A DNA stretch of 64,000 bases, taken from Rhizophagus irregularis (taxonomy: Eukaryota). The notes under the pieces are model-generated. The model did not search any database and was not told where the DNA came from. It saw only the letters and a list, made by a program, of their open reading frames with translations. Where the stretch lies: the NCBI RefSeq assembly GCF_026210795.1, contig NC_089433.1:248001-312000 (forward strand). The letters are read 5' to 3'. Made by a program: the position numbers and the translations under genes. Shown one piece after another: positions 1 to 62,652 of this stretch; within the stretch, counting starts at the first letter, position 1, and every line of letters starts with the position of its first letter.

Positions 1-251
1 TATTTTATACATTTCTTAAATAATTCTTTTTTTTTTTATAATTATCCAATTATTTAAACGAGTAGCAAAATATTTTACACATTCCTTAGTTTGTAATTTT
101 AAAAAATTTTGATTTTGATCGATCGGCTTAAAATTATTCCGGATAAACAATACACAATTTCTGTACTATCGTAAACTTTGATCAACATTAAATTGATTTA
201 CAGCTTGCTTAATTATTTTTTACCTTCTCTTCCAAAATATAGTAAAAAAAA

Positions 252-1777
252 ATGTTATCGCAGTTTTTACTAGATTAAGTGAAAATTATATTGAAATTTT
301 AAATGATGATGAATATTATGATATAACAATTGAAGTTGGTAAGGATCCAAATGTAAAAATATTCCGTGCACACATGATTATCCTGTGTTACCGCTCTCCA
401 TTTTTACGACGAACTTTAATTTCAAATAAAAAGAATAACGATGGTATTTTGGCTCATATTAAGTTATCAGATATCTCACCAGAAATCTTTCAAATTATTC
501 TAAAGTAAGTAAGTAAGTCAAATTTATACTAACTTTTATTAGCAATTAAATATTTTATATTTAATAAAATTTTTTATATTATTAGATATATTTATGGTGG
601 TATAATTTTTTTTAATGAACAAGAAACTTTAGAAATTTTGAAAGTATTGATTGCTGCTGACAAACTTCACCTTCAAGAATTAGTTGACTATTTACAGAAA
701 TATTTAATTGAAAATAAAGTTGAATTAATGAAACAAAATTTTGGACTTGTTTATCAAACAAGTTTTTAATCTGATTCTTTATTAGATCTTCAACAATTTT
801 GTATAGATTGTATGACTAAACATCCTCAAAAAATGTTCAAGTCACTTGATTTTACTTCACTTTCTGAAAAATCTTTGGTTTCACTTATTAAAAGGGATGA
901 TTTACAAATGAAAGAAGTTGAAATTTGGGATCATGTTTTAAAATGAGGACTTACGCAAAATTCTTCTCTTATTTCAGATCCTGATACTTGGACAGATGAT
1001 GATTATGAAATGATGAAAAATACTTTACAACCCTGTTTACCGTTAATTAGATTTTTTAGTTTATCATCTGAAGAATTTGCACAAAAAGTTCGTCCATACA
1101 AAAAACTCTTAGGACGCCAACTTTATGAGAATTTGTTAAATTCATATTTGGATCCTAACATTGAACCAAGTGATAATATTTTACTTCCCAGATACAAGAA
1201 TGTTGATGGAGTTATTGATTCAAAAATTGTTAATTTAAATATTGTTTCTTTGGTTTCAAGATGGGTAGATAAAATAGATATTAAAAGTAAATTTGCTTAT
1301 ACGAGAGAATTATATTTATCATATAAATTTAATTTATTATTAAGAGGAAGTCAAGATGGATTTACTCCTAAGAGGTTTCATGAATTATGTGATAATATAT
1401 CTCATACTATTACATTCATTAAAGTAAGAGGAACAGAAGAAATTATTGGAGGATATAATCCTTTGATTTGGAAAAGTTTGAATAATGAATATGGTGAAAC
1501 AAAAGATAGTTTTATATTTTCTTTTAAAAGTAAGGATAACTTCAAAGTTCCAATTTTGAGCCATGTAAATCCAAAGGATATAAATGGAGCGTTATTTTAT
1601 CATACTAGAAGTGGTCCTACGTTTGGTCGTGATCTTTATATAGGCGTAAAAGGAGTTGATTCAGATGAATATCATCGTAATTATTGTAGAAAATATAGGT
1701 ATGAAAAAGAGATAAGGAATACAGAAGATCTATTCTCAATAGAAGACTATGAAGTATTTCAAATTGTAAAAAGTTAA
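252..1777 (+). pseudogene. BTB-BACK-TLDc protein pseudogene, paralog of 5928-7443
   Basis: ATG 252, exon1 252-504, GT-AG intron 505-585, exon2 586-1777. In-frame premature stops TAA 767-769 (CAA in paralog) and TGA 944-946 (TGG in paralog). TLDc motifs LLRGSQDGF, IGGYNPL, DYEVFQI. Confidence 0.9.
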
Positions 1778-2112
1778 GCTATATAATTTGTATTTAATTT
1801 TGTTCTTAAAGCTAGTTGTACTTTGTAATTACAGATAGAATTATATAAGATTTTTGTAAACGTACATTATAATAAATTCTGGGCCTGGGTATAATGACTC
1901 AAGTTCCAATTTAATCAACTTAAACTTATAAATAATTAATTATTACTTATTTGGTAAATATTTTTTTTTTGTTTTTTATTGATTAATTGATTTAGAAAGT
2001 GATAAATACATATATACTGTATATATATATATATTAATTATCAATAGTAAAAAAAAATATAATAGTTGAAAAAACTTCAAAAGTAAAATTTCATGATTGT
2101 TAATACTAGTAG

Positions 2113-2235
2113 ATGTCAACAAAATGGCTTGTCAGCAAAATAGGGATTCGTTGAAATGGTTTCAGAAAAATGTGATGTCGGCGAAATGGCAAGTCGGCAA
2201 AATTACATCAAACAGTTGTCGGTAAAATGGGTGAA
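2113..2235. repeat. Degenerate ~15-bp GTCGGCRAAATGG-type minisatellite, probably a MITE remnant
   Basis: Units gtcaacaaaatgg / gtcggcgaaatgg / gtcggtaaaatgg. The reverse-complement pattern recurs at ~50290-50390 and weakly at ~62860-62920. Confidence 0.5.
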
Positions 2236-2239
2236 TATG

Positions 2240-2615
2240 TAAGTTCATCTACCACTATCAATAATTTTAATAAGTCAGGACCTTGTAAAATATTCAATTC
2301 AATATTTTCACAGTAAATAAACCTAATAATATAATTTACACAATAAATTTGATATTTCAATTTCGAAAAATATTTCTATTACATTGTCATTATAATTACA
2401 TAAGAATGATATTAAATAATTAAAGATTTGATTCTTCTAAAAATAAATTTCCATCTCTTTTCTCAGCCCATTCGTTATAAGATGCAGTACGAAAATCTTT
2501 AATACTTTGTTCTTCTCCAGCAGTCCAGCATAAATAATAACGTCATATCCAATTTCTGTTCAAAAAAATTTTCATAGTCTCTATATACTAACTCTGCCCA
2601 AAATTTCTAAGTCAT
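2240..2615 (-). pseudogene. Truncated, indel-ridden BTB gene fragment (exon1 and start of exon2)
   Basis: Reverse strand matches the KFWAEL...GYDVIIYAG...NEWAEKRDGKFIF and FIYC.NIEL..LQGPD segments of the 3383-4845 family, with deletions and stops. Confidence 0.8.
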
Positions 2616-3382
2616 TGTTTACTTTTAAGAAAAGCAAAGTTTTATGTTGATTGTTTAACTTTAAATTTCTACAATTACTGCCAAAATTTTGAAGTGTCAT
2701 GAATATTGATCAAAAATTGGGTTTGGATTTTATTATTTGGTGGATGACAAAGTCTTAGAATGTTGTACCTCAAGTGTCGATTCACGCCAGGTGATAACTG
2801 ACGTGCGTCTAGGAATAGAGAAGTTCAAATTGAGTCGGTTCGTTCCATACGTCAGTTCCAAACCGGGTTTGATATGTACTGACTTGGTTCTTAACCAAAG
2901 TGACAAAAACCGATTATGGAACCGAACTGGTTTTTTGGCCCAACTTGGTTTTTCAATAGTATCAGTACCGAACCGAGTGAGCCGTCCGTGCGTGAAAATT
3001 TGTGACCTTAGAATAACAGATTGATTAGAATAACTCACGAAACTACTTCATTCAAAATTACTTATAAATTACGAGTTTTTTTAATATATGATTTCATAAA
3101 TCAATTAAGTATAAAATTTCACAATATATATAATTTATTGTACTATACGAATTTATTTATAGAATAAAAGCAATGTCATTAATAAAAAACGTGTTTGTTA
3201 TGGAAGTGCGATATGCGTCATGTATTTGACTCACGTTCAGTTATCATCTGACACAAATTAATCGACACCTGGAGGTACAACATATATATTAAAAAAAATT
3301 GTTTTTAAAAAAATATATGCATTCAATATCTATATAATAATAATAAATTCTTTATTTATGGAAAAATTTTTTTTAATAGAAT

Positions 3383-4845
3383 TTATTTTTTAATTACTTG
3401 AAATACTTCATAATCTTCTACTTCAAAATTTTCTGGAATTCCTATCTTTGGATAGTCATCACCATAACCACGATCTTTATTAGACCAATTATTATTATCA
3501 CAGTATATATTACCCATAGTTGGACCGTAATTATAATTACAAAAAACAGCACGATTTTGTTTCTTAACATAACTGACTTTTGAAGTAGAAATATTTTTTC
3601 CATTCGTAGAATTAAAAATAAAGCTATCTGCTGTAGTCTCCCATTGATAACGACTTCCATTCCAATCAAGTGGATTATAACCTCCAATTAATTGTGTTGA
3701 ATTTTTAATTTTTGCTATCCAAATAGTAGCTCCTTTATTATCACAATTTTTATGAAAAGATTTAGTATCAACTCCATCTTGACTTGAGCGATATAATAGC
3801 TTAAAATCGTAAGGAACATTTTTTCTATAATGTGATGAATCTTTTTTATCAATCCACGAAGCAAATAGAGGAATATGATTTGACTCAATCAATGTTGAAT
3901 CTAATCTTTGTTTTCTTGAAGGTGGTAAATTAGTTTTAGGTTTCACATTAGGAACTATATAATATTCCAAAAGATCATGAATTAAATCTTGTGGTAAGAT
4001 GTCTTTGTAACAATAAACTTTGTAAAAGAAATCAGTAGGTTCAATATCATAGAATCGAATTAAAGGAATAAATCTGTATAATTCTCTTTCAATTCTTATA
4101 ATATCATCTTTATTCCATTTTGTTGGATCATTCTGCATATTTTGTTGGGCAAAACACCATTTTAATAAATACTCCCAAATTTCAATGTCATTCATAATTA
4201 AGTCGTCCCTTTTTAATAATAATTCCAATAAAGGAGCTTTTAAATTGATAAAATTTTCAGAACTGAATAAAATTTTAGGTTCTTCACAAATTTTTTCAAG
4301 GCAAAAATTCCATAAATCCGTAAATGTTTCATGTTGATAAATAATTTCAAGAATTCCGGTTGGATTTTGTTGTAAAAATTCAGTTTTATGTTCAATCAAA
4401 AATTCTTGAATGTGGGAAACTAATGAATTGATATTTAGCTCATCCACAGCTACCAATAACTCCAATACATCAGGACCTTGTAAAGTCTTCAATTCAATAT
4501 TTCCACAATAAATGAACCTAACAATATGATTAATAGTTAAATATTTTATAAATTTAGATGATTAATAAATTTATTAAATAACATATCTTACCTAAGAATG
4601 ATATTAAATAATTTTGGTGAAATATTTGATTTTTTAAAAATAAATTTTCCATCTCTTTTCTCAGCCCATTCATTAGAAAATGCAGTACGAAAATATTGAG
4701 ACCTAGCACATAAAACATTTGAATGAGCATGAATTTCTTTAATATTTTGTTCTTCTCCAACATAAATAATAACGTCATATCCAGTTTCTGTTTCAAAAAG
4801 TTTTTCATAATCGCTAGATAACTCTGCCCAAAATTTCGAAGACAT
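3383..4845 (-). CDS. BTB/POZ-BACK-TLDc domain protein (~462 aa, 2 exons)
   Basis: Exon1 4845-4592, intron 4591-4518 (GTAAG...TAG), exon2 4517-3383; spliced frame is continuous. BTB motif YDVIIYVGE...AHSNVLCARSQYF; TLDc motifs LLYRSSQDG, IGGYNPL, EDYEVFQV. Confidence 0.92.
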
Positions 4846-5927
4846 TGTTTATTGTAAATAGTAAGAAAAGCAGTAAATTTAAAGTTTATAGTCGAAGCCT
4901 TAATTATATTATATTATGACGATCGTGTAACCTAAATTCCTAATAAAAATAATTTCCTGCGTATTTGTCAACTTTATAACATTGATCAAAGATCATGATT
5001 ATCATATTTAATCAATTTTTTAAAAGATTAAAACTGAAATAACAAGCATATGGAAAAACATAAATTTCATAAAAACCATTTTCTGTTGTACCTAAGCAAA
5101 ACAATTTGTCAATTTTTAACCTTATTATTAATTAAAAATTTTATCCCTCTAACTGTAATTTTTCTAAAATTATTAATAAATTTCAGGCAAATACAGTATA
5201 GCCAGAATGATAAATGAATATTTTATGTACGTACTAGTGATTTAATACACAATTTAATTAACAAAAGAAATGGGTGAATTTTTTCCGCATGTTTTTTAGT
5301 ATATACACAGTTATTTCTACTTAAGGAATAAAGTTAAAAATTCTATAATATCCATTAACATACCTCTGATAATTTCTTAAATAAAATTAAAATGTGATTG
5401 TGAAATGTAAACTACAATTTTAATTTACCGTTCTCTTTTTGCGTTATATAATAATAATTTTATGATAAAAAAATATATTGTTCATAAAATTTGTACTATT
5501 CTGAAATTGTATTTTACAATTCAATTTTTTGATTGATATTAAGACTAGAATGGTAAAAAAAAAATATTTTATACATTTCTTGATTTATATTTAAATAATT
5601 CCAATTATTTAAACGAGTAGCAAAATATTTTACACATTCCTTAGTTGGTAATTTAAATCTAATTATTAAATATAAATTATCAAATTTTGATTTTGCTTGC
5701 AATATCATTAAAAGCTATGATCGATCGCTTACTGGCTGAATCAAACGATGATTAACCATAAAAGAATTTGTACAAATTGCAATAATAGTCGGCTTAAAAT
5801 TATTTCAGCCAAACCGGATAAACAATACACAATTTCCATTTATATCTGTACTATCGTAACATTAAATTGATTTACAGCTTACTTAATTATTTTTTACCTT
5901 CTCTTCCAAAATATAGTAAAAAAAAAA

Positions 5928-7443
5928 ATGTTAACGCAGTTTTTTACTAGATTAAGTGAAAATTATATTGAAATTTTAAATGATGATGAATATTATGATA
6001 TAACAATTGAAGTTGGTAAGGATCCAAATGTAAAAATATTCCGTGCGCACATGATTATCCTGTGTTACCGCTCTCCATTTTTACGACGAACTTTAATTTC
6101 AAATAAAAAGAATAACGATAGTATTTTGACTCATATTAATTTATCAGATATTTCACCTGAAATCTTTCAAATTATTTTAGAGTAAGTCAAATTTATAACT
6201 TTTATTAATAATTTAATATTTTATATTTAATACAATTTTTTTATAACGTAGATATATTTACGGTGGTATAATTTCTTTTAATGAGCAAGAAACTTTAAAA
6301 ATTTTAAATGTATTGGTTGCTGCTGACCAACTTCAACTTCAAGAACTAGTTGATTATTTACAGAAATATTTAATTGAAAATAAAGTTGAATTAATGAAAC
6401 AAAATTTTGGACTTGTTTATCAAACAAGTTTTCAATCTGATTCTTTATTAGATCTTCAACAATTTTGTATAGATTGTATGACTAAACATCCTCAAAAAAT
6501 GTTCAAGTCACTTGATTTTACTTCACTTTCTGAAAAATCTTTGGTTTCACTTATTAAAAGGGATGATTTACAAATGAAAGAAGTTGAAATTTGGGATCAT
6601 GTTTTAAAATGGGGACTTACGCAAAATTCTTCTCTTATTTCAGATCCTGATACTTGGACGGATGATGATTATGAAATGATGAAAAATACTTTACAACTTT
6701 GTTTACCTTTAATTAGATTTTTTAGTTTATCATCTGAAGAATTTTTACAAAAAGTTCATCCATATAAAAAACTTTTGAAACCTCAACTTTATGATGAATT
6801 ATTTAAATCTTATTTGAACCCTAATATTGAACCAAGCAAAGATATACTACTTCCTAGATACAGGAATGTTGATGGAATTATTGATTCAAAAATTGTTAAT
6901 TTAAATATTGTTTCTCTAATTTCAAGGTGGATAGATAAATTGGATATTAAAAGTAAATTTGCTTATGTGAGAGAATTATACTTACCATATAAATTTAAAT
7001 TATTATTAAGAGGAAGTCAAGATGGTTTCACTCCTAAAAAATTTCATGAATTATGTGATAATTTACCTTGTACTGTTATATTTATCAAAGTAAAAGGAAC
7101 GGATGAAATTATTGGAGGATATAATCCTTTGATTTGGAAATGTTTGAATGATGAATATGGTGAAACAAAGGATAGTTTTATATTTTCTTTTAAAAGTAAG
7201 AATAATTTTAAAGATCCAATTTTGAGTCATGTAAATCATGAGAATATAAATAGAGCTATATTTTATCATACTCAATGTGGTCCTACATTTGGTCGTGATC
7301 TTTATATAGGCGTAAAAGGAGTTGATTCAGATGAATATCATCGTAATTATTGTGGAAAATATAGGTATGAAAAAGAGATAAGGAATACAGAAGATGTATT
7401 CTCAATAGAAGACTATGAAGTATTTCAAATTGTAAAAAGTTAA
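5928..7443 (+). CDS. BTB/POZ-BACK-TLDc domain protein (~481 aa, 2 exons)
   Basis: Exon1 5928-6181, intron 6182-6251, exon2 6252-7443. Motifs YYDITIEVG...FRAHMIILCYRSPFL and a TLDc C-terminus. Head-to-head with 3383-4845. Confidence 0.92.
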
Positions 7444-20417: not shown

Positions 20418-21898
20418 TTACTTTTTAATTACTTGAAATACTTCATAATCTTCTACTTCAAAATTTTTTGGAATTCCTATGCTTGGATAGACTTCTCCAT
20501 AACCACGATCTTCATTAGACCAATTAATATTATTAAGACAGTATATATTACCCATAGTTGGACCGAAATTATACTGACATAAAACAGCACGATCTTGTTT
20601 CTTAACATAACTTACTTTTGAAGTAGAAATATTTCCTCCATTGATAAAATTAAAAATAAAGCTATCTGCTGTAGCCACCCAACGAGGTTGTCTAGTATCC
20701 CAATTAAGTGGATTATACCCTCCTATTAATTGTGTTGAATTTTTAATTTTTGCTATCCAAATAGTAGCTCCTTTATCATCACAATTTTTATGAAAAGAAT
20801 TAGTATCAACTCCATCTTGACTTGAGCGATATAATAACTTAAAATCATAGGGATTATTTTTTCTATTATAATGTGAAGTATCTTTTTTATCAATCCACGA
20901 AGCAAAAAGAGGAAGATGATTCGATTTAATTAAAGTTGAATCGAGTGGATATTTTAAATTTGGCTTTCTTGAAGGTGGTAAATTAACTTTTGATTTTATG
21001 TCAGGAACTATATGATATTCCAAAAGATCATGAATTAAATCTTGTGGTAAGATGTCTTTGTAACAATAAACTTTGTAAAAGAAATCAGTAGGTTCAATAT
21101 CATAGAATCGAATTAATGGAATAAATCTGTATAATTCTCTTTCAATTCTTGTAATATCATCTTTATTCCATTTTGTTGGATCATTCTGCATATTTTGTTG
21201 GGCAAAACACCATTTTAATAAATACTCCCAAATTTCAATTTCATCCATAATTAGGTCATCCCTTTTTAATAATAATTCCAATAAAGGAGCTTTTAAATTA
21301 ATAAAATTTTCAGAACTGAATAAAATTTTAGGTTCTTCACAAATTTTTTCAAGGCAAAAATTCCATAAATCCGTAAATGTTTCATGTTGATAAATAATTT
21401 CAAGAATTCCGGTTGGATTTTGTTGTAAAAATTCGGTTTGATGTTCAATCAAAAATTCTTGAACATGAGAAATTAACGGATTGATATTTAGTTCATCCAC
21501 AGCTATCAATAATTTTAATACTTCAGAGCCTTGTAAATTCTTCAATTCAATATTTCCACAATAAATGAACCTAACAATATGATTAATAGTTAAATATTTT
21601 TTACAAATTTATATGATAAAATTTATTAAACAATAATATCTTACCTAAGAATGATATTAAATAATTGAAGTGAAATATTTGATTTTCTAAAAATAAATTT
21701 TCCATCTCTTTTCTCAGCCCATTCGTTAGAAAATGCAGTACGAAAATATTGAGACCTAGCACATAAAATATTTGAATGAGCATGAATTTCTTTAACATTT
21801 TGATCATCTCCAGCATAAATAATAACGTCATATCCTATTTCTGTTTCAAAAAGTTTTTCATAATCGTTGGATAATTCTGCCCAAAATTTTGAAATCAT
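20418..21898 (-). CDS. BTB/POZ-BACK-TLDc domain protein (~468 aa, 2 exons)
   Basis: Exon1 21898-21645, intron 21644-21571, exon2 21570-20418. Intact frame and family motifs. Confidence 0.92.
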
Positions 21899-22324
21899 TT
21901 TTTTTGTTGTAAATGAAAAAAAGGAAAAAAAAAAATGGCAAAAATTTGAGTTGCAACCGAAACCTTATTTATATTGTTTTACGTTGATCGTGTTTCCATA
22001 AATTTCTATAATTGGAAGCAATGATATTTTCTTCACGGCCAATTAAGATTTAAATGATCCAGATTATCTAATTCTACCCCAAACCTCAAGAAACTAACCA
22101 AAGTCATTGTGAGTACTGCCAATTAATTAAGTCAAAACTACACATGTACGGTGTACATTTGGGTCAAAAGCGAATAAATTTTTATTTGCTGATCGTCATA
22201 TTAAAAATTAGACGTATTAACGGTTTCCTTGACCTTCTAACTCTAGATGCTTGAAATTTTCTCTAAATAAAATATGTGTATATCGGTATTAACGTCGACA
22301 TAATTTTTTTAAGCCACAATAATT

Positions 22325-23060
22325 AAATTTATTTTAAATTTATATTAAAAACAAATATTATTACTAACACTTACCTAAAATTAAATAGGATAATATACTG
22401 GATAATTATAAAAGAATTCAGTTAACAAAAAATATTATATAAAATATATAACAATAGGAAATAATGATGCTATATATGATATTAATCATTTTTTTTAAAT
22501 AAAAAATTTAGAATTATATTAATACTACATAAATATGCAATAATAAAATTTAATAAATAATTTTTAACTATTAAAAATAAAATATCACCAAATAATTTTT
22601 AAAAGTTAGATAGTTTAAAAATATATTAATATTATATAACATATATGCATGTAATATTAAAGTTTAAATTATATGTAGAAATTATATTGAGTATGTAACT
22701 ATTTAATTACTAATTAAATAGCTTATAACCCACTCGGCTAAAAAAGATTACAAAATATTTTATTATTTTTTAAATAAAGTTATGTAAATATTGTATAAAT
22801 ATGTAATAATAAAATTTTTATTAAATAAATAACTTGCAAATATTTAATAATAGAATTAAATGAATAACTTACTTCCTATATTATTAAATAATTTTTTAAT
22901 AAAGAATTTAGCTAGTTTAATTGTATGTAAATATTATGTAAATATGTAATAATAGAATTAAACAACCCATACTATAAAAATAATTTTCTTAAATAATTTA
23001 GTTAGTTTAAATTATATATAAATATTATACTGTATAAATATGAATAATAGAATTAAATAG
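22325..23060 (-). pseudogene. Decayed relic of a microexon/intron array related to 39.0-39.9 kb
   Basis: Minus strand shows TAG-GAA-GTAAGT (exon 22875-22873), TAG-CCGA-GTGGGT (22737-22734) and TTTTAG-GTAAGTG (~22369-22380). Intron text resembles 39000-39880. No kinase exons follow. Confidence 0.6.
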
Positions 23061-24664
23061 ATAAAGTGAAAAAGAACGTGAGAGTTTATATTTAAAAAGA
23101 TTCATTGAACATAATACAAGATTTCCCACATCTCATAATTAATTGCATGAATTTTTTGGATTATAGTAATTAGAAAATTTAGTATGTTTAAAGTTTGTTA
23201 AATATAATTTACACTCTTGGTCATTCAAATACATAAAATTGATTAAAATGTTTAAAATTTATAGAAATATAGAAATCATAATTATGAACGAGCACCAACA
23301 TTATATAGTATTTAGGACTTACCTTTCTTATAACAAATATCAACAATAACTTTCCAAATATGAAACGTCATTAATGGTAATAAACTAAGGAACCCAATAA
23401 TTTTCTTTATTTCACATTCACCAAAAATATTTAGACATTCGCTATAATAAAATTTATTATAGTGATTTCTCTACCCTTAAATTGTAAGTGAATATTACAT
23501 AAGTTATTTACAAATGATTTTATTTAACAAATTATCTCGTTTAATATATTTACTTTCATATTCCTTGGAGCTACTTGAAACTCATTACAAATTTTTTAGA
23601 ATAATTTTAATCTATTAAATATTCATACTATATACTTTTTTACCTTTACATTACTGTGAGCTATTATTAAATAATAAGTATCGCATTTCTTTATTAATCA
23701 TCTTATTATAAAACATAGATTACATTAATTTAGAAATACTTAGAGGTAAACAATTATAAAAATTGAATAACCCTATAACTAACAAGTCTATTCTAAAAAA
23801 CGAATACTATGCTAAATAAATAATCTACTTACTAAACGCAACCTGTAATAAATACAATAAAATATATAAAAATTATTTGTAAAAGTTAACAAAGTTTTGC
23901 CTACTTATAAAAATTTTACTAACGTTTTATGTATATACTCTATGCATAATATTGATATTATTCTGAATCCGATACTATATCACCCCTTGTAATCGCTTTC
24001 TTCTTTTTACGTTTTTTCTTATTACTATCTTTCGTCTCATCTGAATCATCCGAACTTAAATTATCATCTTTTGGTTTTATTGAAATTAGTGGCCTTAAAG
24101 GTAGTCTTTTACTAAAATCTTCATTTAAATTTGTAAATTCTTTAACCACCTCCTTATTACTTCCAATATGTGATGCCGGTTTACTCGACGATGTAGGCAC
24201 TGGCGTTGATGTTGATTCAATTTCTAATTGGTCCATCGCATCGAAATATAACTCTTTATTCACTTGAAAGTCGTCCGACTGTTGTGTAGATGAATTATTT
24301 CTTGATGCAAAATGCACTTTTTTTGAACTTATATTTTTTGTTCTTGCCAAATAATTCTTATTGACTTTCCCATTTAAAAACTGATTTGCAATTAAGTATG
24401 ATTTACATACATAGTACTATGCTAAAATTTACCCTTCGTACTACATAAACTTTCTATTGAACGTCATACAGAAGATCATTATTCATTGCGCCACTTTGTT
24501 GAATAAATCAAGTTAAACAAAAAAGGTATAACTATACTTTAAAAGTTAATTCATTGACGCTATCGTTACGACGTTACGTAAACAAACTTTACGTTAATTA
24601 TAAAATAAAAAAAAATTTTTTTTTATTTATTTTTTTTTTGTTCGACTTAAATGACTATATAATC

Positions 24665-25345
24665 ATGACTATACAACCTGAAAATTTACTTGTTTGTTCT
24701 ACAGCGGGAAAAATATATGCTATCAGTAAGATAGATGGCTCTCAAATATGGAAGACCGAACTTAGTGGAGTACATGACGGTGTTGGTTCATTATTTGTAT
24801 CCGGTGATAAAGTTTATGTTGGAATGAATGGTTGTTTAATCGCTTTAAACTTGATTAAAGGAACGGAAATTTGGAGAAACTCACTGTCAGGGATGGGATA
24901 TAATGAAATATCATTACTTGTTGTTAACATAAACTCTGAAGGAGAAGTAACATCTCATGAAGCTCAATCTTCTATCGTTATAGTTGCTTCTCACGGAAAA
25001 GTATATGGAATAAATTCAGAATCAGGAGATATACTTTGGAAAAATAAATTGAAAAATGGTGGTTATGAATTGCCTTCTTTAATAATAGATTCACCTGATA
25101 AAGTTCTTGTTGGATGTGGAAAGTTGGTTTATAAAATTAATATTTATGATGGAAAAACTATCTGGCAAAAGAAAGTTTCTACTTGTTTACTTGGTTGTTC
25201 TCATGTTACTATGGCCACTCATCAAAGTAGTTTACAAAATGCATTTACATACACTGGATTTTGTAATAATCCTATCGCTCAACATTCTAGAAAGGAAAAA
25301 GAAAATAATAAATACGAAATTGCTTACGGTACAAATATTATATAA
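24665..25345 (+). CDS. Intronless PQQ-like (BamB-type) beta-propeller repeat protein, 226 aa
   Basis: First ATG at 24665. Four repeats ending in G..IW[KRQ]: GKIYAISKIDGSQIWK, GCLIALNLIKGTEIWR, GKVYGINSESGDILWK, LVYKINIYDGKTIWQ. Confidence 0.85.
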   Translation: MTIQPENLLVCSTAGKIYAISKIDGSQIWKTELSGVHDGVGSLFVSGDKVYVGMNGCLIALNLIKGTEIWRNSLSGMGYNEISLLVVNINSEGEVTSHEAQSSIVIVASHGKVYGINSESGDILWKNKLKNGGYELPSLIIDSPDKVLVGCGKLVYKINIYDGKTIWQKKVSTCLLGCSHVTMATHQSSLQNAFTYTGFCNNPIAQHSRKEKENNKYEIAYGTNII

Positions 25346-26400
25346 TGTATTGTTAATTAGTGGGGATTATTTTATAAACGTAAATTGTGTTAGTAGAAAA
25401 TATTTGATGTATATTAAATGAGAATTTCAAATTTTATATTTTATGTAAAATATCAAATTATATTTATTATATTGATTTAAAGTTCCCTTTAGTATTATTT
25501 TTTATTAAAAAAAAATAAAGGATAATTTTTTTTTAAAAAAAAAATTCAATATTTTATATATTGCGAATAATACGCTGATGCAATTATTACCATATTTGAG
25601 AGATTGACTTTTCGCCAGTATATGAACGGGATCTTGTAAAATTTTAAATATATTACTATGAAGTATTCTTACGTCATCATGTTGATTTGTTATACAATCT
25701 CGTATGAAAAAGTTATGCTGTAAAGGAAAATCCGAAAATGTTTAAAATCAGATTATTAAATTTTTTTTTTTTTACAAAATTCTTTCCTACCTGCCTGATT
25801 GCTGGTTTTTTTTAACATTAATAAAGTTAAATTGTTTACAACATAAGTTTGTGTGGTAATAAAGGAAACAAATTCAAACTTAATAAAATAATTTAACTAG
25901 GAAACGTAAGTCCAGTAAAATGCGATTTCATTAGGTGGCGATCACGTGGTGGACAGAGAATTCACGTGATCGATTTTTTTTTCATAGTGCGTAGACATAT
26001 ATTGTCCTTCGCTTCGCTCCAGACAATTATTGTAGCTTAAAAAAATTATGTTGATGTTAATACGATATATACATATTTTATTTGGAAAGAAAATGACAAA
26101 CATCTAGGACTAGAAGGTCGAAGAAACCGTTAATACGAATTTAATCGACAAATAAAAATTTATTCTCTCTTGACCCAAGCGTACACCGTACATGCGTAAT
26201 TTTGACTTAATTTTTTGACAGTACTTCCATGACTTTGGTTAGTTTCTTTGAGGTTTGGTAGACGTAAAGAAAATATCATTGCTTCCAATTATAGAAATTT
26301 ATGGAAATACGATCAACGTAAAACAATATAAATAAGGTTTGACTGCAACTCAAAAATTTTTGCCGTTTTTTTTTCCTTTTTCTCATTTACAACAAAAAAA

Positions 26401-27871
26401 ATGATTTCAAAATTTTGGGCAGAATTATCCAACGATTATGAGAAATTTTTTGAAACAGAAATAGGATATGACGTTATTATTTATGCAGGAGATGATCAAA
26501 ATGTCAAAGAAATTCATGCTCATTCAAATATTTTATGTGCTAGGTCTCAATATTTTCGTACTGAATTTTCTAACGAATTGGCTGAGAAAAGAGACGGAAA
26601 ATTTATTTTTAGAAAACAAAATATTTCTCCGCAATTATTTAATATCATTCTTAGGTAAGATATTATTGTATTTTATCATATAAATTTGTAAAAATATTTA
26701 AATAATTAATCATGTTATTAGGTTCATTTATTGTGGAAATATTGAATTGAAGAATTTACAAGGCTCTGAAGTATTAAAATTATTGATAGCTGTGGATGAA
26801 CTGAATATCAATTCGTTAATTTCTCATATCCAAGAATTTTTGATTGAACATCAAACCGAATTTTTACAACAAAATCCAACCGGAATTCTTGAAATTATTT
26901 ATCAACATGAAGCATTTACGGATTTATGGAATTTTTGCCTTGAAAAAATTTGTGAAGAACCTAAAATTTTATTCAGTTCTGAAAATTTTATTAATTTAAA
27001 AGCTCCTTTATTGGAATTATTATTAAAAAAGGATGACTTAATTATGGATGAAATTGAAATTTGGGAGTATTTATTAAAATGGTGTTTTGCTCAACAAAAT
27101 ATGCAGAATGATCCAACAAAATGGAATAAAGATGATATTATAAGAGTTGAAAGAGAATTATATAGATTTATTCCTTTAATTCGATTCTATGATATTGAAC
27201 CTACTGATTTTTTTTACAAAGTTTATTGTTACAAAGACATCTTACCACAAGATTTAATTCATGATCTTTTGGAATATCATATAGTTCCTGACATAAAATC
27301 AAAAGTTAATTTACCACCTTCAAGAAAGCCAAATTTAAAATATCCACTTGATTCAACTTTAATTAAATCGAACCATCTTCCTCTTTTTGCTTCGTGGATT
27401 GATAAAAAAGATACTTCACATTATAATAGAAAAAATAATCCCTATGATTTCAAGTTATTATATCGCTCAAGTCAAGATGGATTTGATACTAAATCATTTC
27501 ACAAAAATTGTGACAATAAAGGAGCTACTATTTGGATAGCAAAAATTAAAAATTTAAAACAATTAATTGGAGGGTATAATCCACTTAATTGGAATGAAAG
27601 TCGTTCTTGGTATGCTACAGCAGACAGTTTTATTTTTAATTTTATCAATGGAGGAAATATTTCTACTTCAAAAGTAAGTTATGTTAAGAAACAAGATCAT
27701 GCTGTTTTATGTCAGTCTAATTACGGTCCATCTATGGGTAATATATACTGTCATAATAATAATTGGTCTAATGAAGATCATGGCTATGGCGATAATATCT
27801 ATCCAAACATAGGAATTCCAAAAAATTTTGAAGTAGAAGATTATGAAGTATTTCAAGTAATTAAAAAGTAA
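26401..27871 (+). CDS. BTB/POZ-BACK-TLDc domain protein (~467 aa, 2 exons), inverted duplicate of 20418-21898
   Basis: Exon1 26401-26654, intron 26655-26721, exon2 26722-27871; intact frame. Confidence 0.92.
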
Positions 27872-37934: not shown

Positions 37935-38244
37935 ATCTAGCCGTAAATAGAACAAATTATTCAAGATCGATGGCTGGTGTTGTTAGCCGAAAATTTACTG
38001 CGCCTTCGGCTGAATCTTTCGGCTAATTACACCATTATGACTAAAAAACGACTCTCGCGAATTAAAGATTTTGTTTGTCACACATAAAATATTAAGTGCT
38101 TGTGATCAAACATAATTGCACATAATGCATATAATGCATCCTACCTGCGTTTTGTATAATTTTTAAATAACTATATATACCCACATTAATAAGGCGTTTA
38201 ACAGAGAAAATATATAAGGAATTTCGATATAATTACATAGTGTA

Positions 38245-41136
38245 ATGGCTCATAGTAATGATAAAGGTAAAAATATATATCAAGAATATTTAATGCAACT
38301 TAGAATTCAATCCTAAACAAATTTGCAATATAATGAAAATAGTTTCAAGTAGTACCAAGGAATCTGGAGGTAAATATAATATGTTAAACAAATTGATAGT
38401 TTCTTAATTTTATTTTACAGTGATATTCACATATTATTTAATCTAACTATATTCTTGTTTACTTAAAAATTATTTTAATAATTTAGCTTGTAAGTCAATA
38501 GGTTATCTTATAATTTAAATATTTATTGAATTACTTGATAAATTATTTATTTTTTCTTAATGTCTATATAACTAAATAATTCATTTAATGATTAATAAAT
38601 GCTATAGTTAGTAAGTTATTGTTTATATATTTTTTAATGTAAAATTACATTGTAGTATCCAAATAATTAAATTTTATTAACAACTATTTAATAATCTAGG
38701 GAGTAAGTTATAAATCATTTAGCCAAAACTATTATAGTTATTAAAATTAACATATAATTCAAAATTATTATATTATTTATTTAAATAATTAGAGTGTAAG
38801 TGATATGATATATTTAAACAGTTTAAATTGTTCATATTTCAGATTTATACATCTAATAATTAATAATAATATTTACAGGGTGTAAGTTACTATATATCAT
38901 ATCATATATGTTCTGTTATTTATATATAATATAAATTAACCAAATACTTAAAAATATTTGGTAGATTGTAAGTTATTAGTCATTTATTTAATTCTACTAT
39001 TATTTATAACATTTACATCATATAATTTAAACTAACTAAACTTTTTATTTAAAATAATTTATTAATAATATAGGGGGTGGGTTATTTAATTTAATTATTC
39101 TAAATTTATGTAATATTTACATATAATTTATACTACTAATTAAATTCTTTATTTAATAATATAGTTTGTAAGTGATTTATTTAATTTATTTATATAATGT
39201 TTACTTATGTTTAAACTAAACTTTTATTTAATAATGATGATAATCATATAGTTCGTAAGTGATTTATTTAACTTTATTATTATATACTTATATGATATTT
39301 GCATGCATTTTATATATTTTATACTAAATTAAATTCTTTATTTAAAAATTATTTAATACAGGAAGTAAGTTATTATTTAATTCAATTACTACATACTTAG
39401 ATATTATAATACAAACTAATCAAATTCTTTATTTAAATTTATTTAATAATATAGAGGGTACGTTGTTTATTTAATTTTATTATTTTTGTTTTGTGCAATA
39501 TTTATGATAATTTAGCTAAGATTTTTTTATTTAAAAATTACCTAATAATTTATTTAAGCTCGTGAGTTATAAATATTTCAATTATTTATTTAGATACTTA
39601 GTTTAATTTTAATTAACTGAATTCTTTATTTAAATAAATATTTGGTAATTTAGTTATTTTTATTAATGGTGACAAAAGTAGTGGATTATTTAAACCCGCA
39701 GTAAAATCATTAGATGATCGTGATGATGGCAGTAAGTTATAAATAATGATTATTATATATTATAATATAAAAACTAAGTTTTACATTCAATTATATTTCT
39801 ATTTAAATTTAGAGTAAGTGTGAATATTATTTTTTGTTTTTAATTTTAATATAACTTTTTAAAATACAACTTAATTATTTAATTATAAGATTTGAAGGAA
39901 GTAGAAATGCAGATACATTTATTCTTGAAAGCAATTTAAAATGGATTCCTTATGATAAATTTAAAAATGTTGAACGTATTGGTGATGGAGGATTTGGAAT
40001 TATATACAAAGCTATTTGGTCATTAAAAAGCGGAGATAAAGAAGTGATTCTTAAAAGTTCAAAATCAAATTTGGACAAATCTTTAATAAATGAAGTATGA
40101 TAATACAATATTTATTTTTTAAATTTAATTATAATTTATTTCTAACTAATATATTTAATTTGTATTTTTTAGTTGATATATCTTGCAAATTGTTTGGAAT
40201 CAACGGAAATTATTAATTTATACGGATACACAAAAAATCCAGATACTTTGAATTATATGGCAGTAATGAAATATGCAAATAAAGGTAAATTAAGAAGGAA
40301 TTTAGCAAAAGTAATTGAAATGAATTGGAAACAAAGATTATGTATATTATATAAAATTATTTCTGGGCTTCATGAAATCCATAATCAAAATCTTATTCAT
40401 TGTGTTTTAAGTGATGCTAATATTTTAGTTCATAAAGGTGAAGAGGATAAAGAGAATACTTTTTTTATTGGTGGGTTTGGATTATGTCAACCAGTATCTT
40501 TTAAAAAAGGGGATATTTTTGGTGTTATGCCATTTGTGGCACCTGAATTATTTAAAGGTAAACCTTATTCTCAAGCTAGTGATATATATAGTTTTTCTAT
40601 GATTATGTGGGAATTTACATCTGGAGTACCACCATTTGATAGAGAATTTGAACTTGATTTTATTTTAAGTATTTGTGGAGGTAAACTTCCTGAAATTATT
40701 GAAAATACTCCACAATGTTATGTAGATTTAATGAAAAGATGTTGGAATACTGATCCATTAAAAAGGCCATCTGCATCAGAAGTTAGGGGTATTATTGGAA
40801 GCTGGATTTTCCATTATTCTGATAATACTAATGATGAGTTAATAAGCAATGATATTATGGAATTTATAAATGCACCAGTTGGATATGCAACTGAATCTCT
40901 TCCACAATTTCTTAGTAAAAAAGAATTGGAAGAAATTCTTGAAAATAAATATTTAGAACCAAGTGTAAGTATAGATCTGAATGAAATGCTAGATTTGGAT
41001 GATTTGGATGATTATACAATTAAAGATACGAAGTCACTAGGTAGGTAGTATAGTGTTCAAAAAAAGCAAATTATTTATGTGAAATTAATTTTATTCTTTT
41101 ATAAATCATTTAATTATTAAAACAGATGAGGATTAA
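38245..41136 (+). CDS. TKL-like pseudokinase (~415 aa) with twelve 3-nt microexons and one 1-nt exon
   Basis: Model: 38245-38266, 38343-38369, 3-nt exons at 38487, 38608, 38700, 38793, 38879, 38965, 39074, 39165, 39252, 39362, 39455 and 39559, then 39654-39731, 39813, 39890-40094, 40173-41040, 41126-41136. Total 1248 nt with no internal stop. Kinase fold WIPY...IGDGGFG...VILK...APE...SDIYSF. The first exon and start codon are less certain (alternative in-frame ATG 38333). Confidence 0.8.
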
Positions 41137-58670: not shown

Positions 58671-61167
58671 GTATTTTTAAAAAGAAGTTTGAAGTTTGAG
58701 AGAGCTTTTGAGGTATATTTATATCTTTTGAGATTTATCAGCGTAGTACTATAAAAAAAAGTAAAAAAAAACCAGTATCAGTAAAGGTTTATGCAAAAAA
58801 AAAATAATAACCAGTATTGTGATTGCAATCTACCTCTTTATGGCAAGCTTTGGATGAGTCATTATGAAGAAAAAGATGGATGGATAGATAAATTAATTAT
58901 TGAGTTTCAATTAAACTATTAAACTATTATATGTATACTGAGATAAACATGCATGATCTTGATATTGATCATCTTTATTGATATTTTCGACAACCGGATC
59001 AATGGCGCAAGCCACACATCGGACTTTATTAATTCTCAATTGCGACTAAACAATCAGAAATATATATATAGGGGTCAGGTGATGAAAAAAAATTTTTTAA
59101 TTTAAAAATAACAAAAAAGAATGTTTATTTAATTAAAAACGTCGAAATTAATGTTTTAGTAAACGTCGAATTTGACTTTTTTTTTAATTCAAAAATAACA
59201 AAGTAGTATACAATAAAATAAAATGTATCGTTATAGTATTTACAAGAATTCCTTAATTCCAAATAAGATGTTATAAATAATTCTAATTGTTTATTAAAAG
59301 TTTTTGTATATTAAATATTTAAAAATGAAAAATATACTGTATAATATAAATATGATGACAAAATATTTGACAACAATCCAATATTAAAGAAAATTAATGT
59401 CTAAAATTAACCGTTCATTGCTAAATAATTTATTAAAAAATAAACTGCTATCAAATTTAAGTTCACATTGGCAAAAAAAACTTTAGATAGATTATTTCAA
59501 GTAAAATTTACGCGTTTAATAAAAATAAAAGACGAATTCACTACACACCAAAATTCTTAGTCGAATATACCTGAAACTACCAATATGACTAACAGGTAGT
59601 TTCTTTTCACTCATATTTTCATAATAAATTATTTATAACTTCATTAGTTCATCTGGAATAAATTTCTCGTATATACAGTACACTCATTGTGCGAGAATAG
59701 TATATTCGTACAAATTAAAGAATTTGATTGAAAATTATTTCTGAATTTTCATACCTAACCTAATAAATTACAAATTGAATAAACCTTTGTCAAAACTTGC
59801 AGCTGCCGATGATTATACTTATAATTATTTCCGGTTTAACGTGACGTGTCCTTTTACCTTTTATATGTTATTTAGTATCTTTAGTATCTGAAGAAATATC
59901 AATAATAATTATGCAATTATAGTTTATTTATAGCTTAATAAAAAAATATCAGCATGATGAAAAAGCACGATCCTATTTGGTCTTTCAAAAATATTAGTAG
60001 TATAGTACTTAATAACAAGAAAAAATTAATTAGTAATAAAATAATCAACATATTGATAAGCAAGCTTATTAAATAATAATCAAGAGATTATTTTTAGTTT
60101 ATTTTGCAACGCATCTATATAATTCTCTTAACGTTAATTCTCTAATTTCTAATTCCGATTCCAATTATAATATTAATAATTCCCTAAACTTGTTGCAAAA
60201 GTATTTCGTATTTCAATTTCAAGTACACATCTCCAAATTATTGGATTAATTCATTTATTTGCGATTTTTCGAGTCACGTCTGATATCTGACGCGCGTCAC
60301 CTTATCGCACAATAAAGTTTCTATAGTAAACACTTATTTTATTAATGAAATTACTTCTTTAATATTCTATAAGTAAACTTACTGTATATATCACAATGAA
60401 TTACACATATTATAAAATTTTATACTTATTTGTAAAATTATATATTGTAAATCTACTTGAAATACTTGTAATTTCTAAATAATTTTAATGAAGTGTTTTT
60501 CATGAGTTTGAGTCTAATCAATCTAATATTTAGGTAATTAATTTATTACAATAAGCACAAAGGCTCATGAAATGGGTTGGAATTGACATTAAAAAAAGAT
60601 TATTTGATGCCCGAATCTGGTCATAAGACTTTTGATGTTGAACAAATTTCTGAAGAACGGACTGAGTCGAACCGGAAGCTTCTAAAAAGGATACCCGTGT
60701 GTTAATTGTTTGGTTATAACTTAATGTTATGTGACAAATGACGCGCGTCAGGACGTCAGGTTGTTCAGGGGATCACATTTTTTATTGTAAAACCTTTTGT
60801 GATTGGCCGTTATTCTAATACACCAATTGTTATAAATATATAAATTTGGCCGGAATTATGTTTAATTCTGGCCAAAATTGAAATTTCAATCGCATTTTTT
60901 TTCATGTGTATTCTTAAGACAATTATAAATTATGTCCTTGAATTATTATAATACTTTGTATAATAAAATTTAAAAATCCGCAGGATATTCGTAATTTGTC
61001 ACATGACTTTAAAAAAAATGAATGACAAATCTACAGTAACTGTTTCTAGAAATTCATGGTACACAAACTACACAATCGACATGAAATTATTTAAATAAAG
61101 CTACGGGTTTCATTCCTTTCAAACTTAAAATTTTTTCCTTTTTTTTTATTTTTATATTAAAAATAAC

Positions 61168-62652
61168 ATGTCTTCAAAATTTTTGGCAGAATTATCTAGC
61201 GACTACGAAAAACTTTTTGAAACTGAAATTGGATATGATGTTATTATTCATGCTGGAGAAGGACAAAATTCGAAGGAAATTCATGCTCATTCAAATATTT
61301 TGTGTATTAGGTCTCAATATTTCCGTTCTGCATTTTCTAATGAATGGGCTGAGAAAAGAGATGGAAAATTTATTTTTAAAAAACCAAATATTTCACCTCA
61401 ATTATTTAATATTATTCTTAGGTATGATAATAATTTTAATAATTTATGATAAATTTTTTTTATTCTCATGATTCAAATCTTTCTAATTGTTATATTTATT
61501 AGGTTCATTTATTGTGGAAATATTGAATTAAAGAATTTACAAGGTCCTGATGTATTGGAGTTGTTGATAGCTGTGGATGAGCTAAATATCAATTCGTTAG
61601 TTTCCCACATTCAAGAATTTTTGATTGAACATAAAACTGAATTTTTACAACAAAATCCAACTGGAATTCTTGAAACAATTTATCAACATGAAACATTTAC
61701 GGATTTATGGAATTTTTGTCTTGAAAAAATTTGTGAAGAACCTAAAATTTTATTCAGCTCTGATAAATTTATTAATTTAAAAGCTCCTTTATTAGAATTA
61801 TTACTAAAAAGAGATGACTTATATATGGATGAAATTGAAATTTGGGAGAATTTATTAAAATGGTGTTTTGCTCAACAAAATATTAAGGTTGATTCAACAA
61901 AATGGAGTAAAGAAGATATTATTAGAGTTGAAAGAGAATTATACAGATTTATTCCTTTAATTCGATTTTATGATATTGAACCTGCAGATTTCTTTTACAA
62001 AGTTTATTGCTACAAAGACGTCTTACCGCAAGATTTAATTCATGATCTTTTGGAATACCACATTGTTCCTAACATAAAACCTAAAACTAATTTACCACCT
62101 TCAAGAAAACCAAATTTAAAGTATCATCTTGATTCAACCTTGATTGAATCAAAACATATTCCTATTTTTGCTTCATGGGTTGAGAGAAAAAATTCTTCAC
62201 ATTATAATATGAAAAATATTCCATATGATTTGAAATTATTATATCGTTCAGATCGGGATGGAACTGACACTAAAACTTTTCATATAAATTGTGACAATAA
62301 AGGAGCTACTATTTGGGTAGCAAAAATTAAAGATTCTACACAAATAATTGGAGGGTATAATCCACTTGATTGGGATGAAGTTTCATATTGGAAAACTACA
62401 GGAGATAGCTTTATTTTTAATTTTACTGATGGAAAAAATATATCTACTTCAAAAGTAAGCTATGTTAATAATCGGGAGTATGCTGTTTTTTGTCATGATA
62501 CTTATGGACCAACCATGGGCAATTTGCACTGCAACCTGAATGGTTGGTCTAATGTTAATCGGGGTGATGGAGATCGTTATCCTAATATAGGAATTCCAGA
62601 AAATAATTTCAAAGTAGAATATTATGAAGTATTTCAAGTAATTAATAAATAA
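61168..62652 (+). CDS. BTB/POZ-BACK-TLDc domain protein (~467 aa, 2 exons)
   Basis: Exon1 61168-61421, intron 61422-61502, exon2 61503-62652; intact frame and family motifs. Confidence 0.92.

Follow-up and report, generated by a model that had tools for sequence, protein, structure and literature searches.

A one-nucleotide exon at the end of an array of codon-sized exons in a Rhizophagus irregularis kinase gene

Introduction

The question raised by the kinase locus studied here is how a reading frame that is left with one unpaired base at an exon end, and resumed with another one base at the start of the kinase-coding exons, is carried across the intervening sequence, and whether a single nucleotide, A39813, is genuinely spliced as an exon in order to do so. 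The locus lies in a 64,000-nucleotide stretch of Rhizophagus irregularis DNA (NC_089433.1, positions 248,001 to 312,000), which is termed the window; positions are those of the window. The kinase repertoire of R. irregularis is reported to be expanded (2,533 genes; PMC10234402), and the window gene, which has PF07714/PF00069 matches and a main kinase exon 100% identical to R. irregularis OCT59_024639, is one of this set. A preliminary description, made from the sequence, proposed the one-nucleotide exon on the basis of frame logic, but left out both the twelve 3-nt exons that lie upstream of it and the layout that recurs across the kinase family.

Results

Sequence and frame at A39813

The motif TTTAG-A-GTAAGT occupies 39808-39819, with A39813 being the only base between two complete introns, the first ending with an AG acceptor and the second beginning with a GT donor. 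The motif, its coordinates, the lengths of the two introns (Table 1), and the spare A both at the end of the upstream exon and at the start of the exon at 39890 were borne out on the sequence. When A39813 is included the computed frame is open through the kinase, whereas without it a stop follows residue 70. The claim that only inclusion of A39813 restores the frame was, however, too strong, because the frame can also be restored, by computation, with an AAG acceptor ending at 39897 or with a donor shifted by 4 nt. The argument from frame was thus right in that microexon splicing at this site is real, as the RNA described below demonstrates, but frame by itself was insufficient, with two other splice choices also open. 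Nor is the motif alone proof, RNA being needed: the 12-mer pattern has two matches in the window (0.07 expected by chance), the second of which, at 6176, is the ordinary coding-exon end of a BTB-type gene.

The DNA thus permits rival splice choices, and public gene models have taken them. The sequence of POG69926.1 is the outcome of an acceptor at 39897, and the OCT59_024639 and GBC19314.1 records translate intron 39732-39812 as coding sequence from an internal ATG. A39813 is missed by three public records of the OCT59_024639 locus, and the checked records of the gene miss all 13 of its microexons.

Table 1. Positions of the features of the kinase gene and of a related decayed copy in the window
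Feature	Position	Strand	Remarks
Exon 1, coding part	38245..38266	+	Start codon at 38245; phase 1 at the 3' end; joint 38264(+2)->38341(+2), GT..AG, in X2, X3 and X8
Exon 2	38343..38369	+	Symmetric (phase 1), 27 nt; joined in X2 and X8; also in P0123
Twelve 3-nt exons	38487..39561	+	Phase 1; regularly spaced AG-NNN-GT units; spliced in RNA contigs
Exon of 78 nt	39654..39731	+	Phase 1 is the only open frame; one spare A at the 3' end; in pieces from X3 and X8
Intron upstream of one-nucleotide exon	39732..39812	+	81 nt, GTAAGT..TAG; retained in X2 and X5
Single-nucleotide exon (A)	39813..39813	+	Middle base of a Lys codon; phase 1 to phase 2; RNA joints in X3, X8 and X2
Intron downstream of one-nucleotide exon	39814..39889	+	76 nt, GTAAGT..AAG; removed in X2, X3 and X8
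First kinase exon (N-lobe)	39890..40094	+	Starts with one spare A
Main kinase exon	40173..41040	+	PF07714 (1.6e-29) and PF00069
Last coding exon	41126..41136	+	Three codons plus stop, deduced from the P0003/P0123 C terminus; beyond the RNA-aligned stretch
Decayed paralogous 5' half	22290..23700	-	70-78% identity by blastn; exon 1, exon 2 and array-type introns

RNA evidence at the one-nucleotide exon

RNA contigs from four runs (X2, X3, X5 and X8), each from a different study, were aligned to 38150-40350. The runs were picked from 24 listed, one per study, for word shares fitting the exons; their records carry no RNA label, and they were taken as RNA from their GT..AG joints. A GT..AG joint between 40094 and 40173 is present in every one of the four, which thus contain spliced RNA. 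The remaining introns, where spliced, also have canonical joints.

The preliminary description had proposed a search of RNA for joints with three A's (A39813 included) or two (A39813 skipped), and for partially spliced intermediates. In both X3 (study P3, depth 19.1) and X8 (study P5, depth 3.6), the joint of 39731 with 39890 contains a single A and no other letter, i.e. the three-A form is present in two studies, and the proposed splitting of a Lys codon over three exons is supported by spliced contigs. In the joints listed for the four runs the two-A form is absent, a result to be read in the light of contigs dropping rare forms and giving no read counts; neither is there, among the joints listed, an acceptor other than 39890 for the kinase exon, with 39890 being used in three runs. 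An intermediate was found in X2 (study P2), in which 39813 is joined to 39890, so that 39814-39889 is removed, and 39732-39812 is still present. A39813 is therefore a real one-nucleotide exon in spliced RNA.

The variation seen at the one-nucleotide exon is retention of the upstream intron, in two of the four runs. At this site X2 and X5 have only intron-retaining forms, which by computation stop at residue 38 or 57. In X2, a single long contig (depth 14.2) still has five introns, 39732-39812 among them; the X5 contig (study P4), spanning 39454-39813, also keeps 39732-39812, with no joint listed at that spot. The raw poly(A) reads of X22-X24 (likeness 90) have a depth of mostly 0-5 over the array and the one-nucleotide exon and are mostly derived from paralogues; in the raw-read alignment of X22-X24 and X1, in which the gene is barely covered, no joint of OCT59_024639 is among the 15 of 89 joints listed.

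The X1 contigs run through introns and are DNA-like. Their summed depth over the array introns (38888-39660) is 63,505, as against about 20 for unique pieces; this is not a copy number, but hints at very many similar introns in the X1 data set. Separately, a 169-nt contig from X2/X5 matches two pieces of array introns (39468-39486 and 39886), in the opposite order to that of the window and separated by other letters, and is probably a paralogous intron.

The array of 3-nt exons

The twelve 3-nt exons start at 38487, 38608, 38700, 38793, 38879, 38965, 39074, 39165, 39252, 39362, 39455 and 39559, and are separated by introns of 83-118 nt. Between the ATG and the 78-nt exon every intron, those of the array included, is phase 1, and each array residue is consequently built from two exons, by one base from one and two bases from the next. 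The array contributes 12 residues, of which 4 are basic and 5 aromatic. The pattern HAGNNNGTRAGT has 15 matches in the window, as against 1.31 expected, and matches 10 of the 12 exons. By blastn the array has about 66% self-similarity, and TRF finds no long-period repeat in it.

Each of the twelve exons is spliced in at least one contig, none of those listed holding all twelve together: exons 1-4 are joined in the X2 contig, exons 1-5 and 9-12 in X8 contigs, exons 6-12 at a loose contig end from X3, and X5 has the joint from exon 6 to exon 7. In an X8 contig exon 5 is followed by exon 9, i.e. exons 6-8 are skipped, with the frame kept and 0 other letters over 235 nt; the absence of exons 6-8 was seen in this one contig, of depth 3.6, and may reflect an allele, while X2 and X3 have all three. 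As each residue takes bases from two exons, skipping alters the identity as well as the length of the peptide. By computation, 2802 of the 4096 possible exon subsets are open, and encode 2782 distinct peptides, a figure that describes capacity rather than observed diversity.

The full gene model has a frame open through the kinase and, with the last exon as deduced from P0123 added, would have 415 residues. The N terminus encoded by exon 1 is identical to that of P0123/POG69926.1. A protein search with the N terminus gave five proteins, and the stretch encoded by the array is absent from the four compared (P0003, P0004, P0005 and P0011). A second ATG, at 38258, opens an overlapping phase-0 frame of about 40 codons that runs (38258-39700, + strand) through the array into the 78-nt exon. 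There are no phase-0 stops among the 85 array triplets of all loci. The phase-0 reading ends at a stop inside the 78-nt exon, never reaches the kinase and was rejected as the main frame.

Related kinase loci

A scan of soil-metagenome DNA with a 27-protein alignment gave 233 kinase loci, of which 80 were kept, mostly on contigs of 1-4 kb; these were read from the DNA sequence, and their microexons are predictions. Predicted chains of at least two microexons occur in 22 of the 80 loci (L015 duplicates L013), and 87 of the 94 chain exons, the window being counted in, are 3 nt long. On the reverse strand of the metagenome loci and the window there are no adjacent microexon pairs. In phase 1, none of the 64 junction codons in 21 arrays is a stop, as against a mean of 4.0 in pooled shuffles (P 0.007) and 3.2 in within-array shuffles (P 0.014), whereas the phase-2 reading has 12 stops as against a shuffle mean of 9.7. 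The absence of phase-1 stops is the pattern expected of phase-1 coding exons, and such avoidance at adjacent junctions points to a coding constraint.

With a scripted anchor, a candidate microexon was placed before the kinase in 29 of the 80 loci and none in 20, with the anchor absent in 31, two of which (L011 and L014) were assigned manually. Most of the 20 loci lacking a candidate are on incomplete contigs, and several have a CxxC-type exon instead. The last predicted microexon is 1 nt in L002, L003, L008 and L010, as it is in the window, 4 nt in L009, L011, L014 and L018, and 3 nt in 16 distinct loci; six loci (L017, L021, L026, L037, L061 and L070) are left out of these classes. In all nine cases with a 1-nt or 4-nt last exon the following acceptor leaves one spare base, while with a 3-nt last exon the family-equivalent acceptor leaves two, a correspondence which argues for a role as frame adaptor. 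In two of the 16 three-nt loci, L029 and L059, there is in addition an open AG upstream, in a different phase; a third, L053, has a stop further in, and the 1-nt locus L010 has one directly after the acceptor.

In a tree of 41 rows the 1-nt loci and the Rhizophagus proteins form one clade (99/97) and the 4-nt loci its sister clade (99/95), with the 3-nt loci outside both. The last-exon classes thus follow clades, and the phase match reflects few events rather than 25 independent cases; what is more useful is that, within the phase-2 clade, the two predicted last-exon lengths are both of the form 3n+1. The introns flanking the one-nucleotide exon align across four loci and the window. Judged by eye, the distance from the last phase-1 junction to a conserved Ser codon is 11 nt in both the 4-nt (L011, L014 and L018) and the 1-nt (L002, L003, L008 and L010) types, much as though the intron had shifted by one codon; L009 is an exception.

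The array of L065 is a recent tandem repeat of an intron-plus-codon unit (period 87, 5.4 copies, 82% matches). L037 has insertions at about 60-730 and 1390-1565, beside and inside its array, the second having inverted ends and splitting an array intron. The CxxC-exon kinases L061 and L063 are nested among 3-nt-array genes in the tree, and in L061 the CxxC exon is preceded by a candidate exon of 3 nt.

Among the 120 of 724 homologous proteins listed, 18, including P0003, start with NLE/ILE, where intron sequence is read, or with SK, where the donor is read through; such starts would be consistent with a gene predictor working around a missed one-nucleotide exon. The N termini of P0066, P0067, P0097, P0102 and P0111 have acidic repeats of 8-9 residues that look like the 27-nt exon 2 copied in tandem, and some paralogues may also have arrays of 24-27-nt exons.

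The kinase domain of the window copy

The kinase domain passes the curated profile cut-offs (103.4 bits versus 23.1 and 92.4 versus 31.7 for PF07714 and PF00069, respectively). The Asp of the HxD motif belongs to the catalytic loop and that of the DxG motif binds Mg. In the window copy these motifs read HCV and GFG; with both aspartates gone, its product is likely a pseudokinase. The HxD Asp is kept in 111 of the 120 (of 724) homologues listed, 6 of which have no pattern match, and the DxG Asp in 111 of 114 among those listed; the HxD motif is also kept in most of the metagenome loci. Most relatives are likely active kinases.

Neighbouring features

In the decayed relative of the 5' half of the gene, AG is followed directly by GTAAGT, leaving 0 nt at the site of the one-nucleotide exon; no kinase exon follows, but a BTB-type gene. 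At least six near-identical genes, which we take to resemble BTB-BACK-TLDc genes, lie at 197-7443, 20418-27871 and 61085-62652. Two further genes are present in the window, one ion-channel-like (29.9-33.9 kb, - strand) and the other a second kinase/Sel1-like gene (44.5-46.6 kb).

Discussion

Taken as a whole, we consider it probable that the one-nucleotide exon closes the 12-exon array as an obligatory frame adaptor and that the 3-nt exons vary a short peptide in front of the kinase. The parts of this proposal differ in strength: that A39813 is an obligatory phase adaptor is held with considerable confidence, whereas selection for peptide diversification as the purpose of the array falls a little short of an even chance. 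Since the array is phase 1 and the kinase exon phase 2 in the Rhizophagus clade, their coupling would need an exon of 3n+1 nucleotides, which has a length of 1 nt in the window gene and 4 nt in the loci of the sister clade. Recognition of the introns, which are short and AT-rich and have consensus donors, would be by intron definition, and their removal one by one. It may be that the intron downstream of A39813 leaves first, whereupon the single A would become the 5' end of a 206-nt exon, and would never be present as a free exon. Array growth could have proceeded by tandem duplication of an intron-plus-codon unit, and the variable peptide has a putative role in tuning partner binding or membrane attachment.

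The extension of this scheme to the family, i.e. codon-level combinatorial splicing in many AM-fungal kinases by means of an N-terminal array of one-codon exons and a 1-nt or 4-nt adaptor exon, is advanced tentatively. If correct, thousands of recognition or targeting peptides could derive from one gene, representing unannotated diversity in a largely clonal symbiont, and the kinase arrays of AM fungi would be convergent with truffle NLRs.

A different view, which leaves the one-nucleotide exon obligatory, is that an intron-plus-codon unit has multiplied in tandem in a largely neutral way, selection only keeping the frame open and skips being splicing noise. The recent near-identical duplications in L065, the decayed array copy within the window, the mobile-element-like insertions and degenerate donors of L037, and the skip having been seen in just one contig are all consistent with neutrality. 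By contrast, the avoidance of stops at junctions implies coding constraint, and arrays persist in both kinase clades, although both observations are silent on selection for diversity itself. On balance, largely neutral expansion appears somewhat unlikely.

It is also conceivable, if unlikely, that gene output is set by intron retention around the microexons, including that of 39732-39812, rather than by exon skipping. The retention of this intron in X2 and X5, the lack of retention in X3 and X8, and the early stops of the retained forms fit with this proposal. Part-spliced nuclear RNA is, however, to be expected near microexons, and contigs give no ratios; in plants, the flanking introns of 50 of 69 constitutive microexons are reported to be spliced late (PMC8831610).

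The preliminary description suggested that skipping of A39813 could act as an on/off switch, and regulated skipping would indeed turn the kinase off by a frameshift, given the stop that follows residue 70 when the base is omitted. This finds no support in the listed joints of the four runs, where the two-A form is absent; in addition, consensus splice sites are present on both sides of the exon, the window copy has neither the catalytic nor the Mg-binding Asp, and the literature presents the one-nucleotide exons of APC11 and CYP621A as constitutive or required (PMC4674806, PMC12940212), so that a skipping switch seems very improbable. That the one-nucleotide exon is dispensable, the main mRNA using the 39897 acceptor, the 4-nt-shifted donor or the intronic ATG, is hardly tenable, since, although all three alternatives are open and two are found in NCBI records, the listed joints into the kinase exon are all at 39890 (three runs) with one A between, in contradiction of such a main form.

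With one-nucleotide exons known from a handful of genes, the window provides an RNA-supported case that recurs, by prediction, across a kinase family. As the records miss all the microexons of the gene, database entries for many AM-fungal kinases may have incorrect N termini. OCT59_024639 is also a compact natural test of the spliceosome on serial 1-nt and 3-nt exons, and of splicing as a source of signalling diversity in AM fungi. Microexons are unmentioned in the text of the genome paper on exons, splicing, isoforms and kinases (PMC10234402), and a literature search, covering titles and the starts of abstracts, with subscription papers and supplements outside its scope, gave no paper on microexon arrays in AM fungi. 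Within the searches made, codon-sized exon arrays in fungi were otherwise found in print only for the truffle nank genes.

Comparison with known systems

The Schistosoma MEGs are described as encoding secreted proteins, with exons of 3-81 bp and introns of 0.2-5 kb (bioRxiv 10.1101/2023.06.21.545858). The Rhizophagus-type arrays resemble them in that short symmetric exons follow one another and can be omitted without loss of frame, but differ in that nearly all the exons are 3 nt, the introns are about 70-120 nt and the domain encoded is an intracellular kinase. The window gene, with introns of 76-118 nt, a kinase domain and no hydrophobic, signal-like N terminus (by eye), is thus not of the MEG type.

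One-nucleotide exons have been reported in Arabidopsis APC11 (PMC4674806), plant VPS55 (PMC8831610) and Fusarium CYP621A, the last being termed, in 2026, the first case in a fungal gene (PMC12940212). In these, as here, one base lies between two GT-AG introns, is essential for the frame, was missed by annotation and is seen in RNA. By contrast, the published exons are isolated ones in conserved genes, whereas A39813 closes an array and recurs in a multigene family, with a predicted 4-nt counterpart in the sister clade.

The closest parallel to the array itself is in the Tuber nank genes, for which alternative splicing of codon-sized microexons is described (PMC4986451, PMC3689799, PMC10197012). 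As with nank, several consecutive 3-nt exons are spliced into mRNA, the organism is a fungal symbiont, the signalling family is expanded and diversity by splicing is proposed. The differences are that nank genes encode NLRs in Ascomycota, while the Rhizophagus host gene, in Glomeromycotina, encodes a protein kinase; that the Rhizophagus array is N-terminal to the kinase and, in one clade, ends in a 1-nt or 4-nt phase adaptor; and that isoform diversity in the Rhizophagus gene comes from one contig. Only kinase families were matched by the window gene, with no NACHT or ankyrin domains, making it nank-like at most and not a member of that family. Thus, two known kinds of microexon, the one-nucleotide exon and the codon-sized array, are here combined within a large kinase family.
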